Shown here: piece after piece, positions 6,350 to 50,956 of the stretch | Numbering within the stretch: position 1 is the first letter of the stretch | Layout: the number at the start of each line of letters is the position of its first letter | Source of the DNA: Candidatus Chazhemtobacterium aquaticus | GTDB lineage: Bacteria > Patescibacteriota > Microgenomatia > UBA1400 > Chazhemtobacteraceae | Direction of reading: 5' to 3' | Assembly (NCBI RefSeq): GCF_009936135.1 | Contig: NZ_CP047901.1 | Location: 475,643-539,642, forward strand | DNA: 64,000 nt | The notes under the pieces: generated by a model | What the model was told of the DNA's origin: nothing | Database searches by the model: none | The model's input: only the letters and a program-made list of their open reading frames with translations | Translations under genes and position numbers: made by a program

Positions 6350-7162
6350 ATGGATCTCTCCATCATCATCATCACTTACAACTCAAGACAACACATCACT
6401 CCTTTGCTTAACTCAATTAAAAAATCACCCGATCGTCTCAAGAAAGAAATCATTGTTGTTGACAACGCCTCGCGAGATGACTCTGCTGATCTAGCCTCAA
6501 AACATCCATTAAAACCCAAAGTCATTCGCTCCAAGATCAATCAGGGCTTCTCCAAGGCCGTCAATCAGGCAATCAAAGCTTCATCAGGTCAACATCTCCT
6601 CCTGCTCAACCCTGACACGCGCTTAGTGGGCAACTGTTTAACATATCTTCACGACTTTGCTTCAAAAACCTCGCCCCTAGGCGCTGTCTCTCCACGTCTG
6701 CTTGGTCTTAATGGCCGCCCCCAGCCTTCCGTTTTTCGCTTTCCCACTATTATCAATGCCATCCGTCACTACTTCTTTAATTGCCAAAACTGCTTTGGCA
6801 AATACCTGCCACCCAACAAAACCACCAAAGTAGATGTTGCCGTTATGGCTGCCATGCTCATACCCCGTTCTACTATAGATACCGTTGGTGTTCTTGACGA
6901 GAGATTCTTCCTTTACTATGAAGATATTGAGTTTTGCAGACGACTCAAAAAACACCGTCTGCCGCTCTATTACCTTCCCCAGGCTAAAGTTAAACATGCC
7001 CACGGAGCATCAGGCCACTTCCGCTCTCATCTAGACAGCCCCTTACTTAAATCAGCCCAAATCTACCATGGTCGAGTTTACTCTACCCTGCTTAATCTCA
7101 CTCTCTTGCTTGGTCAGAAATGGCAAAAGTTCATCCGTCACCCCCTTCCTAAACTTGGCTAA
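6350..7162 (+). CDS. Glycosyltransferase family 2.
   Basis: LSIIIITYNSRQHI...IIVVDNASRDDS...KINQGFSKAVNQAI...LLLLNPDT. Confidence 0.75.
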   Translation: MDLSIIIITYNSRQHITPLLNSIKKSPDRLKKEIIVVDNASRDDSADLASKHPLKPKVIRSKINQGFSKAVNQAIKASSGQHLLLLNPDTRLVGNCLTYLHDFASKTSPLGAVSPRLLGLNGRPQPSVFRFPTIINAIRHYFFNCQNCFGKYLPPNKTTKVDVAVMAAMLIPRSTIDTVGVLDERFFLYYEDIEFCRRLKKHRLPLYYLPQAKVKHAHGASGHFRSHLDSPLLKSAQIYHGRVYSTLLNLTLLLGQKWQKFIRHPLPKLG

Positions 7163-7174
7163 ATATTTTCCCTC

Positions 7175-7201
7175 TTGACCTTTTTACTTTCGTTATATAA
7201 A
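7175..7201 (+). promoter_or_regulatory. Sigma70-like promoter candidate (TTGACC -35; TATATA/TATAAA -10 with 13-15 bp spacer).
   Basis: TTGACC at 7175-7180; ttatataaa at 7193-7201. It lies 13 bp after the GT2 stop and immediately upstream of a hairpin, SD and sORF. Confidence 0.3.
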
Positions 7202-7257
7202 GCACGCCTTAATGCACACCCGTGCATCAACGTACATTTGTTGTAAGGAGGTGTTCT

Positions 7258-7362
7258 ATGTTCACCGGTCGCGCTCGCATTCGTGGAAGTCCGATCAACG
7301 TTTCCGAGAACCTCACGCTGGCGCCATCGAACATCACCATCCTGGGCCGCGAGGAAGGATAG
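7258..7362 (+). CDS. Candidate 34-aa sORF (MFTGRARIRGSPINVSENLTLAPSNITILGREEG) preceded by a near-consensus Shine-Dalgarno; a leader peptide or small protein.
   Basis: AAGGAGGTG at 7245-7253 lies 5-6 nt upstream of the ATG at 7258. Stop is TAG at 7360-7362. The ORF sits inside a GC-rich (about 60%) segment, so it could instead be part of a structured RNA. Confidence 0.25.
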   Translation: MFTGRARIRGSPINVSENLTLAPSNITILGREEG

Positions 7363-7420
7363 CCGCGTCGATCTGCCGCATCCTTGCCTCCAAGTAATAC
7401 AACAGCAGTACCCGCATCAC

Positions 7421-7470
7421 GCCCCGCCGCCTGGCACACACACCGCCGACGACGGGGCCCCTTTTTATCT
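7421..7470 (+). terminator. Intrinsic-terminator-like GC stem followed by a U-tract.
   Basis: GCCCCG (7421-7426) pairs with CGGGGC (7453-7458), followed by CCCTTTTTAT. The palindrome GGGGCCCC is directly followed by TTTTT. Confidence 0.3.
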
Positions 7471-7509
7471 TCCTTTCCTCTTTTTTCTCCGACACGCTAC
7501 AATATCCTT

Positions 7510-8736
7510 GTGAAATTAAAACTTCCTCGCTTAGTCATCTTTTCCATCGTTATTGGTATTCTGCTCCGTCTCATTTTTGCTCTCACCACCTATCACGGTG
7601 ATCTGGCTGCCTTGGTTCTAGCCGGTGACTCTCTGGCGGTTAAACACCAGTTCATCAACTTCTACGAATCGGTTTTCACCATTGGCACTCAGGGTGAGCT
7701 CAAGCTCCCCGACCACCAGATGACCTTCATCTACCAACCCTTAGCCTACTTCATCCCCGGTCTTATCTACCTTCCCTTTGCCGGTGTCTTAAAAGGCTTA
7801 GTCGATGGTTTGCTTCACATCAATCCCTATTTACTGGCAGGCAAATCTCTCTTCTTCCCTCTCCTTATATACAAGCTCCCCCTTATTCTCGCTGACCTAG
7901 GCACTCTCTTCCTGTTGCCTAAATTCTTTACCAAGAAGAAAGATCAACATCTCTCCCTCATCCTCTGGTCGCTTAATCCCCTCGCTATTTACGTCTCTTC
8001 CATGGTCGGCCAGGTTGACGCCATCCTTACCTCCTTCCTGGTTGCCGGACTCCTTGCTTTCAAGAAAGATCGCCTCTACCTCTCCATTTTCTTCTTTACT
8101 CTTTCCGCCTTAGTCAAACCCATTGGTTTGGTTCTTCTTCCTGCCGTTGCCCTTTACCACTACTCGCTTCATCGCCGATTGCTGGATGTCGTCAAACTAG
8201 TTTCCTCAGGACTCCTCACCTATCTTCTGGTCATCGCCCCCTTCCTACCCTCTTTAGCTTATCGCCAGTACACTCTCTTTGCTGAACACATAAACAAGAC
8301 CCTCTTTGCCGGTATTGCCATCTCACCCGGCACCCTCATTCCCTGGTTTTTCATCACCTATGCTGCCATCCTGGTTCTCTTGCTTAATCGCCGTATCTCA
8401 CCTTTCTACGCTCTTGGTGCCGCTTTGTTAGCCAGTCTCTCCTTTACCCATTTCCACCCTCAGTGGTTAATCTGGCTCACTCCTTGGCTCGTTATATACC
8501 TAGTTACCACTAGGGATTGGCTAACTCCTTTGGTTACCCTTTTTTCGTGGTTGGTTATTCTTTTCTCTTTTGAACCAAGCCTAACCTATCATCTTTTCTT
8601 CGGTCTTAATCTAAATCCCATTGCTCTTTCCTCCTCGCTTGCTTCCTTCACTCCTCATTTAATTTCCCTGTCCCGGGCCTGGATTGCTGCCCTTCTGCTC
8701 CATTTCACTCTACAAAAGCCAGCTCATGAAACTTAA
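7510..8736 (+). CDS. Polytopic membrane protein, GT-C-fold glycosyltransferase-like. The start is placed at the in-frame GTG at 7510; the ORF-track start at 7384 lies inside the GC-rich element.
   Basis: At least 10 TM segments. The first loop has an acidic motif (YHGDLAALVLAGDS). A TACAAT box at 7498-7503 lies 6 nt upstream of the GTG, which would fit a leaderless mRNA. The start is uncertain. Confidence 0.45.
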   Translation: MKLKLPRLVIFSIVIGILLRLIFALTTYHGDLAALVLAGDSLAVKHQFINFYESVFTIGTQGELKLPDHQMTFIYQPLAYFIPGLIYLPFAGVLKGLVDGLLHINPYLLAGKSLFFPLLIYKLPLILADLGTLFLLPKFFTKKKDQHLSLILWSLNPLAIYVSSMVGQVDAILTSFLVAGLLAFKKDRLYLSIFFFTLSALVKPIGLVLLPAVALYHYSLHRRLLDVVKLVSSGLLTYLLVIAPFLPSLAYRQYTLFAEHINKTLFAGIAISPGTLIPWFFITYAAILVLLLNRRISPFYALGAALLASLSFTHFHPQWLIWLTPWLVIYLVTTRDWLTPLVTLFSWLVILFSFEPSLTYHLFFGLNLNPIALSSSLASFTPHLISLSRAWIAALLLHFTLQKPAHET

Positions 8737-10461: not shown

Positions 10462-11238
10462 GTGAATCCGACAATTATTCCAACTCAATTCTCAATACTA
10501 CTTCTTAGTCTCCTAGGATATATTGTTATTACCCATAAATCCTACATCGTTTTTTTATATCTTATTTCCGTTCCTTTCTTCTTTTATTTTCCGCTCCAAC
10601 CGGTAACTTTAGTAATTTCTATAATTTTCGGAATTCTTCTTTTTGAATTGTTTAATAAGCCAAACAAGAAAAACTTTATTCTATCTTCACTCGTACTTTT
10701 TATTGCTTTTTTTCTCCTCCATCAAAACAGTCATCTATATATTCCCACCAGCAACATTATTGATCACCAAAGAGGTGCTCATCCCGATTGGCAATACAGC
10801 TCAATCCCTCGCTTACTGCACAACAAATTTTACTTAGTTTTCCAATACCTAGACATACTTATTAGTAAACTTTCACCTTCACGTCTGTTTGTCTATGGTT
10901 GGTACCCAAATTTGTCTCCATATCTACCATTAGGTTATTTTTTTGCTTCAGATTTAATTTTTCTATATGCATTTCTCAAATCACGACTTGGTCATCCAAA
11001 GTCACCCATCTTATATTTTTTCCTTTCTTTGGTTCTTCTGGGAATAGCTATATTTGAAGGGCAGATCTCTCTTTTCTTCTTATCCTCACTGGTTCTTTTC
11101 ATGGCACTATGCATTTCACACTTTATAGCCGGACTGCCACGCAAATACTCACTTACCACTCTCTCGGTTTATGCATTAACTTTGTTATGGATTAACCCAA
11201 CCATTAACCTATTTTGGAACATTGGTTTTCGTCCTTAG
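10462..11238 (+). CDS. Small polytopic membrane protein (about 7 TM), unknown function.
   Basis: Hydrophobic 258-aa ORF immediately downstream of GT39 paralog 1. Confidence 0.45.
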   Translation: MNPTIIPTQFSILLLSLLGYIVITHKSYIVFLYLISVPFFFYFPLQPVTLVISIIFGILLFELFNKPNKKNFILSSLVLFIAFFLLHQNSHLYIPTSNIIDHQRGAHPDWQYSSIPRLLHNKFYLVFQYLDILISKLSPSRLFVYGWYPNLSPYLPLGYFFASDLIFLYAFLKSRLGHPKSPILYFFLSLVLLGIAIFEGQISLFFLSSLVLFMALCISHFIAGLPRKYSLTTLSVYALTLLWINPTINLFWNIGFRP

Positions 11239-11241
11239 TCT

Positions 11242-12915
11242 ATGAAACTAAACCGCTTATATCTTCTAGCCGCCATTATATTTGTCCTCGCAGTTCTACT
11301 CCGTTTTCTTTATATAGACACTATTCCCAACAACTTAACCATGGATGAAGTAAATAACGGCTACACAGCTTACTCGCTTCTTAAAACAGGTCACGACGAA
11401 TGGGGAAATTTTCTTCCTTTTTCATTTCGTTCGGTCGGTGATTACAAACCTCCAATACTGATTTACCTAACTGTTCCATCTATTGCTCTTTTCGGTCTAA
11501 ACGAATTTTCTGTTCGTTTCCCTGTAGCTCTTGCTTCACTCTTTTCCCTCCTTTTTACCCTTCTCCTTAGTAAGAAATTTTTATTTGCCAAACAACCACT
11601 CTGGTTTCACCTATTCGTATTATTTTTGTTCGCCACATCCCCGTGGCACATCATATTCTCCCGATCCGGATACGAAGCCGTTGTCGCCCTCCTCTTCTTT
11701 CTTATTAACATTCTCCTTCTTTTACAGTTTATTAAGGAAAAAAGACCTATTCTGCTTGCTTTAGCCATCACTTTTGCTTTCCTTTCTGTCTTCACTTATC
11801 ACTCCTACAAAGTCTTTACCCCTCTGATGAATTTGCTGGTCATCTTCGTTTATCGTCAGACATTACTAGAACATTTTAAGCATGTTTTTGGCACCTCCAG
11901 ACTTCATTGCTCTTATTTGGCTGTCCTTGGCCTACTCATCTTCCTCAGCTGGTTTTTGATTACTCAATACCTTACCGGGCCCGGGGCAACCAGAGCTTCA
12001 ATGGTTTTCATATCTTCAGATTATGAATACAAAGTCGCTCTGATTGATAAACTGCTTAAATATGATTTTCACCATTATCAATATCTCTTTTTCCCCCTCT
12101 TTTGGTTTAAACGCTATCTTGACTATTTCTCACCCAATTTCTACCTATATTCAGGGTTAGAATTAACCCAACCCGGACACATAGGGTCAGGCGTTACTGG
12201 TTTTGCTGTATTCAGTCTTTTCGTTACTGGTCTATATGCACTCCTTTTTAATAAAGGTAAGTTGCTTATTAGGCAGCCTATCCGCACGATTCTTTTAGGT
12301 TGGCTCTTTATTGGCTTTCTGCCTGCTTCTCTGGCAAACAATATTCAACAACCTCTCCGTGCCCTAGCCGCCTTGCCAGCAATTCTATTTATTGCAGCTC
12401 TAGGTTTATTGCATTTATTTCAATCTTTAAGAAATCGTTTTCATCTCATAGTCATTGCTGTATTTCTAACTACATTATTTGTCTTTGATTATGTTAGATT
12501 TGCTGATCATTACCTCATTCACTACCCATACGATCTGGCAGAAGGACGTCACTATGGCTGGAAGCAGATTTATCAATATTTGGAACCTATAAAAGACAAC
12601 TACCATCAAATTTACGTCGATCAACGTTATGGCCACACGGGTAGAACAACTTACTCAGTCCCGTACCTCTACTTTCTTTTTTACTCACAATACGATCCCC
12701 TCGTATTTCAGCAAGATCCCCGAAGGAAGCAGCACGATGCCAACTTTGATCAATTCATCTTTGGTGACATAGATTGGCAGTCCCAGGATCTGGGCAAAAA
12801 CAATCTGTTTGTTGCCTCACCCTGGAGTTTTACCATCTACCAAGGGCCCATCTTGCACACCGTTTATTTCCCCGACGGGGTTCCTGCCTTGCATATTATC
12901 GAAGGACCAAAATAA
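11242..12915 (+). CDS. GT39/PMT/ArnT-like GT-C membrane glycosyltransferase (paralog 2).
   Basis: Motifs LRFLYIDTIPNNLTMDEVNNGYTAYSLLKTGHDEWG and FRSVGDYKPPILIYL, clearly paralogous to the 8726 and 13603 genes. Confidence 0.7.
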   Translation: MKLNRLYLLAAIIFVLAVLLRFLYIDTIPNNLTMDEVNNGYTAYSLLKTGHDEWGNFLPFSFRSVGDYKPPILIYLTVPSIALFGLNEFSVRFPVALASLFSLLFTLLLSKKFLFAKQPLWFHLFVLFLFATSPWHIIFSRSGYEAVVALLFFLINILLLLQFIKEKRPILLALAITFAFLSVFTYHSYKVFTPLMNLLVIFVYRQTLLEHFKHVFGTSRLHCSYLAVLGLLIFLSWFLITQYLTGPGATRASMVFISSDYEYKVALIDKLLKYDFHHYQYLFFPLFWFKRYLDYFSPNFYLYSGLELTQPGHIGSGVTGFAVFSLFVTGLYALLFNKGKLLIRQPIRTILLGWLFIGFLPASLANNIQQPLRALAALPAILFIAALGLLHLFQSLRNRFHLIVIAVFLTTLFVFDYVRFADHYLIHYPYDLAEGRHYGWKQIYQYLEPIKDNYHQIYVDQRYGHTGRTTYSVPYLYFLFYSQYDPLVFQQDPRRKQHDANFDQFIFGDIDWQSQDLGKNNLFVASPWSFTIYQGPILHTVYFPDGVPALHIIEGPK

Positions 12916-41787: not shown

Positions 41788-42108
41788 ATGGCCCTGACTC
41801 AAACAGATATCACTAAGCTTTCTAAAATATTTGCCACTAAGGAAGATCTTCGGAAAGCTCTTGCTCCCTACGCTACCAAGGAAGATCTTCGAAAAGCGCT
41901 TGCTCCCTACGCTACCAAGGAAGATCTAGAAAAGTATCTCACGGTTGACGAATTTCGTCAGTTTAAGGATGATGTTCTCACCGGTCTTGACAAAGTTATG
42001 GGTGAATTAAAAAAAATTAGAGAGGAACAAATCTTCATGCACAACAAAGTTTATCAGGATCACGAAAAAAGAATCACTCGCCTTGAACAAACCCAAAGCC
42101 TTGCCTAA
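41788..42108 (+). CDS. Small coiled-coil protein containing a tandem ATKEDLRKALAPY repeat.
   Basis: 106-aa ORF. The repeat unit is present 2.5 times at the protein and DNA level. Confidence 0.4.
   Translation: MALTQTDITKLSKIFATKEDLRKALAPYATKEDLRKALAPYATKEDLEKYLTVDEFRQFKDDVLTGLDKVMGELKKIREEQIFMHNKVYQDHEKRITRLEQTQSLA
41833..41935 (+). repeat. 39-bp direct tandem repeat (2 full copies plus 1 partial) inside the 41788 ORF.
   Basis: gccactaaggaagatcttcggaaagctcttgctccctac / gctaccaaggaagatcttcgaaaagcgcttgctccctac / gctaccaaggaagatctagaaaag... Confidence 0.6.
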
Positions 42109-45611: not shown

Positions 45612-45815
45612 ATGAAAAGTAGACGTCAGCTAAACTCTACTACCTACCTCCTCCTAGCTGCCCTTGCCGCCTTTATCTCTCTGGCCATTGTTCTCTACTC
45701 TTCCACCATTACCGATGTTAAACCCACCCCACCCCAGACAGTGTTAGGCGCTAGTAGCGATCGTCCCAGCAGCTTAAAACAAGCCGTTCTGGAACTCTTC
45801 TCCTCCTCGCGCTAA
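45612..45815 (+). CDS. Possible 67-aa single-TM small protein.
   Basis: One hydrophobic helix (YLLLAALAAFISLAIVLY). Preceded by a 71-bp intergenic region containing TTGACA and a TGACAA-N5-TGACAA direct repeat. Confidence 0.3.
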   Translation: MKSRRQLNSTTYLLLAALAAFISLAIVLYSSTITDVKPTPPQTVLGASSDRPSSLKQAVLELFSSSR

Positions 45816-45824
45816 GATTCACTC

Positions 45825-46559
45825 ATGAAACTAACCGTTGTTATTCCCGCTCTTAATGAGCAGCAGGACTTACCCCGCACCCTTGACTCGCTAAAGTTTG
45901 CCGATGAAGTCTTGGTCATCGACTCAGGTTCCACCGACCAGACTGTTAGTCTTGCTAAAAAAGCCGGAGCCAGAGTTCTCCATCATTCATTTAAGAACTT
46001 CGCCGACACCAGAAACTTTGCCGACAGCCAAGCCAAAAACGACTTCATCCTTTCCATCGAGGCTGACGTGGTCGTTCCCAAACAGTTAGCCCAGGAAATT
46101 GCTTCTCTACCTGATACCCCAGCTGCCTATCGTATTGGCCGGGTCAACATTATCTTTGGTAAGCCCATTCTTCACACCGACTGGGGACCTAAAGACGACA
46201 ACCATATCCGTCTATACCATCGCTCCCTTGGCTCCTGGGGTGGCCAGGTTCATGAGCTATTTGCGACTAACTCTCGCCCCCATCATCTCCGTCATCATCT
46301 GCTTCACTACAACTACAACCATGTCTCCGAGTTTATCGACAAGATCAACACCTACTCTGATCTGGAAGTTAAAAAAAGACTCGCTCGTCACCAGTCCTTT
46401 TCCTACCTCAATTTATTTCTAGAGCCCACCAAAGACTTCATCAAGCGCTACTTCTACAAACTAGGTTTCCTGGATGGCCTCCACGGCTTCTTTTTAAGCC
46501 TGCTTCAAGCCATCTACTATCTTACTGTCAACATCAAGCTCAAGTCAGCCTCGACTTGA
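45825..46559 (+). CDS. Glycosyltransferase family 2.
   Basis: LTVVIPALNEQQDLPRTLDSLKFADEVLVIDSGSTDQT...EADV. Confidence 0.75.
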   Translation: MKLTVVIPALNEQQDLPRTLDSLKFADEVLVIDSGSTDQTVSLAKKAGARVLHHSFKNFADTRNFADSQAKNDFILSIEADVVVPKQLAQEIASLPDTPAAYRIGRVNIIFGKPILHTDWGPKDDNHIRLYHRSLGSWGGQVHELFATNSRPHHLRHHLLHYNYNHVSEFIDKINTYSDLEVKKRLARHQSFSYLNLFLEPTKDFIKRYFYKLGFLDGLHGFFLSLLQAIYYLTVNIKLKSAST

Positions 46560-50320: not shown

Positions 50321-50956
50321 ATGAAAATCGCCAATCTTAAAATCACCTCCCAAGGCTTCCAGTTTGTTGACAAACAGGGCAAATCTCTTTCGCTCAATGT
50401 GGCCATCGGCAAGATTATTAACCGTTTCTTTAGCTATTTTCTCGATTTCGAGTTAATGCTTTTAAACTACGTCGGTCACATACCCATTCATTTCCTCCGC
50501 CATTCTATCTACCGTCTTTCTGGCCTACAACTCCATCCTTCCTCCACTATCCACACTGGCGCCCGTTTCTTCAACCCCCGCCGTATCAAAATCGGAGAGG
50601 ATACCATCATTGGTTACCGTGCTTTTCTTGATGGCCGTGCCCCCTTAACCATTGGTTCTCATGTCGATATTGCCTCTGAAGTCATGATCTACAACTCAGA
50701 ACACGACGTTCACTCCACTGATATGAAAGCCATTGAGGAACCAGTAAAAATCGAGGATTACGTTTTTATCGGTCCCCGAGTCATCATCATGCCCGGCGTC
50801 ACTGTTGGCAAAGGTGCGGTTATTGCCGGTGGGGCGGTCGTCACCAAAGACGTTCCACCAGGGTCTATAGTTGGCGGAGTTCCTGCCAAGGTCATCGGTG
50901 AACGTCGTCTCAGGAAGTTCAACTATCATCTTGGCCGCCCCCGACTCTTCCAATAG
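50321..50956 (+). CDS. Hexapeptide-repeat (LbH) sugar O-acetyltransferase.
   Basis: Tandem hexapeptide repeats: [15 protein letters not shown]...[14 protein letters not shown]...[25 protein letters not shown]. Confidence 0.7.

Follow-up and report, generated by a model that had tools for sequence, protein, structure and literature searches.

The window analysed here is a stretch of 64,000 nucleotides (nt) from Candidatus Chazhemtobacterium aquaticus, a member of the Microgenomates within the Candidate Phyla Radiation (CPR). In the gap at 7163-7509 between two glycosyltransferase genes, one of the GT2 family and one of the GT-C type, it contains a small open reading frame (sORF) that is framed by signals of its own. 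This element is real, is lineage-restricted and belongs to no known family. Its main feature is a polymorphism that was invisible to the first-pass annotation, which was made from the window alone: among related strains the modules at its 5' and 3' ends are nearly invariant, whereas the body between them occurs in deeply divergent alleles or is missing. We tentatively read the locus as an autonomous, translated small-ORF cassette that splits an ancestral operon and could act as a strain-variable valve on the expression of the GT-C gene. The parts of the cassette are as follows, in window coordinates.

7175-7201, + strand: promoter-like box, TTGACC (7175-7180)-N15-TATAAA (7196-7201), identical in all strain variants
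7212-7227, + strand: perfect hairpin of 6 base pairs (bp), ATGCAC-ACCC-GTGCAT, -7.0 kcal/mol
7239-7253, + strand: UGUUGUA plus Shine-Dalgarno (SD) sequence, AAGGAGGUG, 5' arm of a putative long-range helix; predicted pairing probability of GGAGG 0.89-1.0 in alleles A-D
7245-7253, + strand: SD sequence AAGGAGGTG, read directly
7258-7362, + strand: sORF of 34 codons, MFTGRARIRGSPINVSENLTLAPSNITILGREEG in allele A, from ATG 7258 to TAG 7360-7362
7268-7420, no strand assigned: hypervariable cassette body, allele classes A-E; missing in some strains (about 178 nt, 7268-7445)
7351-7391, + strand: predicted hairpin across the stop codon, in which GAGGAAGGAU (EEG codons and start of the stop) pairs with AUCCUUGCCUC, -18.2 kcal/mol
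7387-7404, + strand: anti-SD CCUCC (7387-7391) and UACAACA (7398-7404), 3' arm of the putative long-range helix, islands in a variable 3' untranslated region (UTR)
7421-7466, + strand: terminator-like interrupted 12-bp hairpin, CCC and T-run, -18.9 kcal/mol, 12/12 pairs invariant
7468-7509, + strand: polypyrimidine tract, then CACGCTACAATA with TACAAT (7498-7503), a box upstream of the GT-C start codon GTG at a distance of 6 nt

All motifs that the first-pass annotation had named in the gap are present where it had placed them, as read directly from the sequence. Its description of the gap as an autonomous micro-locus was borne out in that there is hardly any variation in promoter-like box, hairpin, SD and ATG, the reading frame is kept in four alleles and an equivalent is found in a sister lineage (locus L007), whereas the transcription attenuation that it had suggested for the locus was not, as we will focus on below. 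The promoter-like box was missed by a consensus scan for spacers of 16-18 nt, since its own spacer measures 15 nt (13 nt to TATATA). The hairpin at 7212-7227 would probably lie at the 5' end of the transcript, as a putative 5' stabiliser; allele B keeps 5 bp of it with a changed loop. The SD had been called conspicuous, and it is indeed the strongest in the 64-kb window: its duplex with the anti-SD reaches -14.9 kcal/mol, compared to -10.7 for the best of 55 long ORFs, whose mean is -1.5. No other AAGGAGG occurs on the G-poor + strand, and the spacing to the conserved ATG is 6 nt.

The spacer with the element was found only in C. aquaticus and in L007, whose GT-C protein is 60% identical. In loci L010, L011, L013, L014, L079 and L084 the GT2 and GT-C genes abut or overlap, and in L006, L009 and L074 (63-64% GT-C identity) a different gene lies upstream and no element is present. 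Conservation upstream of orthologous GT-C genes is therefore confined to the C. aquaticus strains and L007 and absent from more distant loci, and since the genes abut in distant relatives, the spacer can be regarded as a lineage-specific insertion. In L007 it occupies the same place with 236 nt and comprises a TTTACC-N17-TACAAT box, a weaker SD (-7.9 kcal/mol), an ORF of 21 codons, MLVANVSGNVVDTVCSCREEG, ending with CREEG, and a 15-bp hairpin.

Allele classes of the cassette body

About 40 related contigs from NCBI, JGI, ENA and Logan carry the locus (L-numbers designate the fetched loci). The proteins of their flanking genes are 95-97% identical, and 15-25% of the fourfold degenerate (4-fold) sites of these genes differ from the window strain. 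Compared to this, the 5' module (7192-7267) diverges by 0-5% between strains (11-12% for allele D) and the 3' module (7421-7503) by 0-1.2% (3.6% for A versus A2). The body in between behaves in the opposite way, with 43-48% substitutions plus 15-18 indel columns between classes (A versus B, C or D) and no difference within a class (0/153, 0/152 and 0/149). The following alleles were distinguished.

Allele A: peptide MFTGRARIRGSPINVSENLTLAPSNITILGREEG; window, L001-3, L064/65
Allele B: peptide MFTASRRVRNKSSPVVASVCSMAVAVAEPGREEG, 34 codons; L008, L069, L071
Allele C: peptide ...AILSVSSLAIADAEPGREEG, 34 codons; L049-56, L059-61
Allele D: 33 amino acids (aa), in-frame 3-nt deletion; L072/73
Allele E: mosaic of a B-type 5' part and an A-type 3' part including the 3' UTR of A; L127/128/130
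Deletion allele: about 178 nt missing (window 7268-7445), with short CACCG(C) repeats at the edges; L062/63, L067

In allele E a 1-nt deletion cuts the ORF to 22 aa; with this base restored it would have 34 codons and end with SNFTLVREEG. The deletion allele has lost the 5' arm of the terminator, and the length of its T-run decides whether the sORF is fused in frame to the GT-C gene or stops in overlap with its GTG: the first outcome is seen in L062/63, where the ATG has been joined in frame to GT-C (called as 433 aa), and the second in L067, where the short ORF is closed by a TGA that overlaps the GTG.

Which allele a strain carries does not follow its flanking haplotype. In locus L064, allele A is combined with a GT2 gene that is 0.22 away from that of the window and only 0.08-0.09 away from those of strains with alleles B and D (4-fold sites), the GT2 genes of L071 (allele B) and L072 (allele D) are identical, and the window (allele A) and L059/L049 (allele C) are identical over 200-300 nt on either side of the body. 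Conserved modules around divergent, flank-uncoupled bodies indicate that the body is a cassette exchanged by recombination. Moreover, assembly is interrupted precisely at the body in the contigs L004, L005, L057, L058, L068, L070 and L129, which begin or stop there or contain an N-run; this is the way in which co-occurring alleles disrupt assemblies.

Two other origins of the variation were rejected. Neutral drift at the 4-fold rate of the flanks does not fit the body, as its divergence is about twofold higher between classes and zero within them. Mutagenesis of the type known from diversity-generating retroelements was discarded because the differences between B and C involve all four bases and a second copy is lacking: no further copy of the element was detected by repeat searches, motif searches with 3 mismatches or an nhmmer profile of alleles A-D and L007 in the 64-kb window and the 130 fetched loci, and no reverse-transcriptase domain was found among the neighbouring gene calls. 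A miniature inverted-repeat transposable element, with multiple copies, terminal inverted repeats and target duplication, was also considered; in the sequences covered, a short direct repeat, CACCG(C), at the edges of the deletion is the one feature seen that recalls it.

The natural deletion and frameshift alleles could also be taken as signs that the element has no function and is the remnant of a foreign GC-rich sequence or of a decayed gene in the intergenic region, drifting neutrally and being lost; of importance would then be only the promoter and start signals that flank it. The odd composition and codon usage (G at third codon positions 0.18-0.26 versus 0.13 in genes) and the lack of homologues elsewhere would suit such an origin. 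We consider it quite improbable, because the ORF and its REEG-stop block predate the split from L007, frame and length are kept in four deep alleles, and not one difference has accumulated within classes in 149-153 nt on backgrounds that differ by 8-25% at 4-fold sites. Furthermore, the G-depleting strand bias of the genome (PMC7143001) should have eroded a neutral G-rich insert.

The small ORF and its peptide

The sORF is annotated as "hypothetical protein" in four contigs from JGI, Logan and ENA. Its length is 105, 105, 105 and 102 nt in alleles A, B, C and D, respectively, and the 104 nt of allele E are a 1-nt deletion of a 105-nt form. Among the intact alleles, indels within the ORF measure 3 nt (in allele D and between E and A) or are compensating 6-nt changes, and those outside the ORF measure 1-2 nt. 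All intact alleles have 33-34 codons with a common (G/C)REEG-stop end. Where A, B and L007 differ in the REEG-stop block, the change is always at a third codon position. In a patch of 39 nt that differs between B and C, the frame of the sORF gives the most conservative substitutions, although by a modest margin. Judged from these patterns and the strong SD, the sORF is probably translated, and selection seems to act on frame, stop position and fold and not on the peptide sequence. Programmed read-through from the sORF into GT-C was considered, since allele A has the ATG and GTG 7510 in one frame, and was rejected because indels in the T-run and 3' UTR shift the frame between alleles.

The middle of the peptide differs in character between alleles: in A it is polar, in B-D it is hydrophobic and resembles a signal peptide, and in L007 it consists of a short acidic stretch. 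Alleles B-D have a positive n-region RRVRNK, a hydrophobic stretch (12-aa Kyte-Doolittle mean 1.9-2.4), an AxA motif and then EPGREEG; this stretch spans only 14-16 residues, the longest uncharged one in allele B being about 16 aa. Allele A and L007 have no hydrophobic core (best 12-aa means 1.2 and 1.05, respectively), and L007 has no positive N-terminus. Allele A contains three N-x-S/T sequons (NVS, NLT and NIT; 7297-7338, codons 14-27), a density reached by only 0.04% of the 34-aa windows of the local proteome, and each of the other alleles has at least one.

These properties give some weight to a trans-acting micro-protein or exported peptide whose C-terminal (G/C)REEG is the active part and whose alleles are specificity types under frequency-dependent selection, in the manner of pheromone or bacteriocin loci. 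A strong SD as well as a conserved frame and C-terminus would be expected for it, deep flank-uncoupled classes that co-occur in samples are a signature of social or recognition peptides, alleles B-D resemble signal peptides, and every allele carries a sequon in a locus that lies within a glycosylation island. We nevertheless regard this explanation as doubtful. Allele A and L007 lack the hydrophobic core, and L007 also the positive N-terminus; frameshift and deletion alleles are tolerated; and no receptor, processing or export partner co-varies nearby, GT2 and the N-terminus of GT-C being uncoupled from the allele. Apart from itself the peptide has no homologue: a phmmer search of 1.84 billion representative proteins returned only the peptide and a repetitive adhesin-like protein of 4742 aa (P0109), which was judged a compositional or repeat match and dismissed as a homologue, and searches of Pfam and NCBIfam at E<=10 gave no match.

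A comparison with pheromone loci such as comC, agrD and phr leads to a similar picture. These share with the locus a small ORF, deep discrete classes within conserved flanks, recombination and co-occurrence of types. In Phr-type systems the active part is a C-terminal pentapeptide. Here, however, the C-terminus is constant and the N-terminal and middle parts vary, so that the presumed carrier is variable and the presumed signal constant, which is the opposite of known pherotype loci. Signal-like N-terminal regions, which a Phr/RRNPP system would have in all members, occur in alleles B-D only, no gene for a TPR/HTH receptor is present among the neighbouring genes, and an adjacent kinase or processing gene is missing as well. 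For glycocins and other ribosomally synthesized and post-translationally modified peptides, it has to be considered that the GT2/GT-C pair also occurs in relatives without a peptide gene. In addition, the GT2 protein scores 22.3 bits against the SunS family of peptide glycosyltransferases, far below the cut-off of 350, which leaves the upstream gene a generic GT2, and no STT3/PglB-type oligosaccharyltransferase was seen among the neighbouring genes. We regard it as quite unlikely that the alleles represent strain-specific exported, processed or glycosylated peptides acting as recognition or signalling types, an idea suggested by the signal-like N-terminus of B-D with the constant GREEG and by the sequons in a glycosylation island. 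If it were true, a CPR episymbiont would for the first time have a social or recognition system based on peptides, or a glycopeptide dedicated to such a role.

Predicted RNA fold, terminator-like hairpin and start of the GT-C gene

Some conserved blocks would fit a folded RNA. The predicted hairpin across the stop codon shows a single compensatory exchange (A-U/G-C) when allele A is compared to B-D, and L007 has GGGCU/AGCCC at its position. Within the variable 3' UTR the islands CCUCC, UACAACA and GAUCYGCC are conserved, the first two of which can pair with the SD and with UGUUGUA at 7239-7245. This long-range helix between 3' UTR and SD is suggestive only, as it stands clearly above the controls in allele A alone: shuffled cores reached the same pairing in 0/100 cases for A, 8/100 for C, 13/100 for D and 19/100 for B. 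In total three compensatory pairs were counted, a number attained in 5/500 shuffles, while the folding z-scores are weak with -1.6 for allele A and -0.1 for allele B. The covariation looked for by the first-pass annotation is hence present to a small extent, but it derives from four sequences, effectively two clades, and the structure was derived from the same sequences. No known RNA family was found for the element. The whole window gave no match at the Rfam gathering thresholds, the best scores at E<=10 in 6800-7900 (13-15 bits versus thresholds of 42-55) are noise, and tRNA or tmRNA genes are absent.

The first-pass annotation had offered a structured small RNA (sRNA) as an alternative, in which the ORF would be incidental and the body a target-recognition or co-adapted helical region. 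The GC content of the element, the maximum of the window, and its local G excess (27.6% versus 16.5%) are compatible with it, as are the conserved 3' UTR islands, the three compensatory pairs and the similar predicted fold of alleles A and C, in which a helix of 5' and 3' ends encloses two hairpins and is followed by the terminator; allele E, too, retains all RNA islands in spite of its frameshift. We still hold an sRNA for unlikely: the lack of any Rfam family even at E<=10, the z-scores and the minimal covariation speak against it, the indel lengths follow the reading frame inside the ORF and only there, and a nearly perfect SD 6 nt from a conserved ATG would be left unexplained. In most of these points the locus also differs from the GC-rich non-coding RNA islands of AT-rich genomes, with which it has in common a local GC and G excess between promoter and terminator.

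An SD sequestered by fold-back is typical of type I toxin mRNAs such as hok/Sok and aapA1/IsoA1, which have ORFs of 20-35 codons and an anti-SD far away on the 3' side that pairs with the SD, are inserted in intergenic sites of restricted lineages and are often lost or turned into pseudogenes. In analogy, the cassette could encode a toxic peptide whose mRNA is silenced by 5'-3' fold-back on the SD, here by the 3' UTR anti-SD with a closing helix UGUUGU/ACAACA, and by an antisense RNA; the presence/absence and pseudogene polymorphism of the intergenic insertion would agree with this. However, the peptide is not a transmembrane helix, being polar in A and L007 and uncharged over only about 16 aa in allele B. 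The sequestration of the SD does not clearly exceed composition controls, and the minus strand of 7163-7509 contains neither a promoter-like or terminator-like site (consensus scans only) nor a conserved ORF or terminator, so that no antisense gene was detected. A type I toxin-antitoxin-like function is accordingly a very remote prospect.

The terminator-like hairpin contains the stem GCCCCG (7421-7426)/CGGGGC (7453-7458), followed by CCC-TTTTT-AT, and has a loop of 9 nt; it was missed by a terminator scan because of this loop and because CCC separates the stem from the T-run. The T-run at 7462-7466 has 5, 6 or 7 T in otherwise identical alleles (L008, L049, L059, L064 and L067). A polypyrimidine run (7468-7491) leads to the GTG of the GT-C gene, which is without SD (+0.4 kcal/mol) and is preceded at a distance of 6 nt by TACAAT. 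In L007 a TAGAAT box likewise lies 6 nt from the GTG, within CACGCTAGAATA, and in both lineages the box is part of a conserved block, CACGCTAnAATA (window 7493-7512; L007 895-913). This suggests that the TACAAT box is the GT-C gene's own promoter and a candidate site of transcription restart, in which case the GT-C message may be leaderless and initiated at GUG.

The layout of promoter, SD-led short ORF, hairpin with T-run and structural gene on one strand is that of a classical leader-peptide transcription attenuator, as had been proposed for the GT-C gene by the first-pass annotation. In such a system the place of the ribosome on the sORF would select either an antiterminator or the terminator. 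Like the leaders trpL and hisL and regulatory upstream ORFs such as tnaC, speFL and ermCL, the locus has an sORF on the strand of the structural gene, putatively translated and with its frame kept in alleles A-D, and frame and stop-proximal residues are conserved, while the remaining peptide is free; moreover, it is evident from the deletion allele that transcription from the upstream promoter can reach GT-C. Unlike these leaders, it has no antiterminator, no run of regulatory codons and no overlap of ORF and terminator, since 58 nt (7363-7420) separate the stop codon from the stem that begins at 7421. When the RNA was folded up to the 5' arm of the terminator, without the 3' arm, this arm found no partner in the upstream sequence of A, C and D, and the pairing that it formed in B is not conserved, so that alleles A-D share no alternative structure; the 3' UTR with 17% G cannot pair with the C-rich 5' arm. 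The hairpin of L007 has no U-run, and the conserved -10-like box directly upstream of GT-C would give this gene a start of its own. Attenuation is for these reasons improbable. To our knowledge, a recombining allelic cassette body is also not a feature of known leaders.

We therefore prefer, with reserve, the cassette as a cis-acting valve. It would be a unit inserted between the GT2 and the GT87-type GT-C genes, which are contiguous or coupled in other Microgenomates, and its transcript would comprise, in this order, the sequence downstream of the promoter-like box with the 5' hairpin, the SD, the 34-codon ORF, a 3' UTR folding onto the SD and the terminator-like hairpin. Selection would maintain translation in a fixed frame to a fixed stop, the (G/C)REEG-stop block within its hairpin, and the RNA fold. 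Hairpin and T-run would end the unit's own transcript as well as any read-through from the GT2 operon, and transcription of GT-C would begin anew at the TACAAT box, 6 nt from the GTG. In this way the cassette could insulate the GT-C (surface-glycan) operon, and the body, the length of the T-run or the loss of the cassette could set the GT-C level, with the deletion allele as the extreme case, in which a strong promoter and SD are put straight onto GT-C.

Several points weigh against this valve. The steps leading from anatomy to function are all inferred for this organism. The spacer of the promoter has only 15 nt, the terminator contains a CCC spacer, and the hairpin of L007 lacks a U-run. Pairing of the SD is common in shuffled-core controls (mean 0.8), which adds to the weak z-scores and to the few sequences behind the covariation. 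At third positions the REEG block varies by A/G transitions, which would equally be expected if an RNA motif resembling an SD were conserved. Recent recombination instead of purifying selection may account for part of the near-invariance of the modules, since neighbouring 100-nt windows are also 93-100% identical. The frameshifted (E) and deleted alleles show that the ORF is dispensable, and a cis valve by itself does not account for the depth and discreteness of the allele classes.

CPR bacteria, or Patescibacteria, have tiny genomes with few described regulatory elements or small proteins, and their surface glycans are thought to be important for host attachment and for phage pressure. If the valve operates as proposed, the locus would be a concrete example of strain-level variation in the control of envelope genes in an uncultured lineage. 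A practical caution follows for annotation, as the GC-rich body yields false N-termini of GT-C and breaks metagenome assemblies.

Base composition and genomic setting

The GC content of about 60% that had been attributed to the entire gap applies to a part of it: 7163-7509 as a whole has 52.7%, and only 7258-7460 reaches 63%, compared to 46-47.6% in the flanking genes. Nowhere in the 64-kb window is the GC content higher than in the 177-nt core (top 0.07% of windows); the sole other 177-nt stretch with at least 58% GC is at 50767-50951, inside the ORF 50321-50956. The + strand of the window has 16.5% G and 27.5% C with a negative GC skew almost throughout, in agreement with the genome paper, in which one strand of the 801,504-bp genome has 29.8% C versus 15% G (PMC7143001). 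GGAGG is accordingly rare on the + strand, with 8 occurrences against 99 on the - strand. With 27.6% G the sORF runs counter to this bias, G being enriched at all three codon positions in allele A. The genome paper covers the G/C strand disparity and contains nothing on the sORF locus (PMC7143001), and a literature search found no paper on small ORFs or leader peptides in glycosyltransferase clusters of the CPR.

Two forward frames and two reverse-strand ORFs are stop-free through much of the core, which explains the spurious ORFs that the first-pass annotation had recognised here, including the TTG start at 7384; the frame of the sORF itself stops at 7360. All gene callers and orthologues begin GT-C at GTG 7510, which confirms 7384 as a false N-terminus, and the minus-strand ORFs of 70, 53 and 93 aa are not conserved between alleles. 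The same effect underlies GT-C calls of 433-506 aa in L059-L061, L064, L072 and L062/63, which carry false N-terminal extensions of 25-98 aa. Their size varies with the allele and the length of the T-run, as the callers run upstream through the stop-free GC-rich body.

The two genes on either side of the cassette are as follows.

6350-7162, + strand: GT2-family glycosyltransferase gene, 270 aa, Pfam PF00535 at 2e-21
7510-8736, + strand: GT-C gene, GT87/MptA_B-like, 408 aa, start GTG 7510, as in the gene calls of L001-L003

The product of the GT2 gene matches QHO63481.1/WP_161931861.1 of Ca. Chazhemtobacterium aquaticus without a difference. Homologues of the GT-C protein bear PF26314/PF09594, one of them being named "glycosyltransferase 87 family", and the copy of the window has no Pfam-A match at 1e-3. 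The sORF has GT2, SNase-like, HlyD-like, GT-C and PMT_2-like genes as neighbours, and the window as a whole is a large glycosyltransferase island. The metagenome-assembled genome GCA_022705705.1 (L001 14123-15756 versus window 10462-12915) shares the GT2/sORF/GT-C locus and differs in the downstream gene order, where an inverted PMT_2-like gene replaces the ORFs of 258 aa and 557 aa of the window. Elsewhere in the window, an ORF at 41789-42100, which is absent from the list of ORFs of at least 120 aa, has about three tandem copies of a 39-nt (13-aa) unit, ATKEDLRKALAPY, and an ORF of about 67 codons with a hydrophobic stretch is located at 45612-45815 in a 285-nt gap upstream of the gene at 45825.

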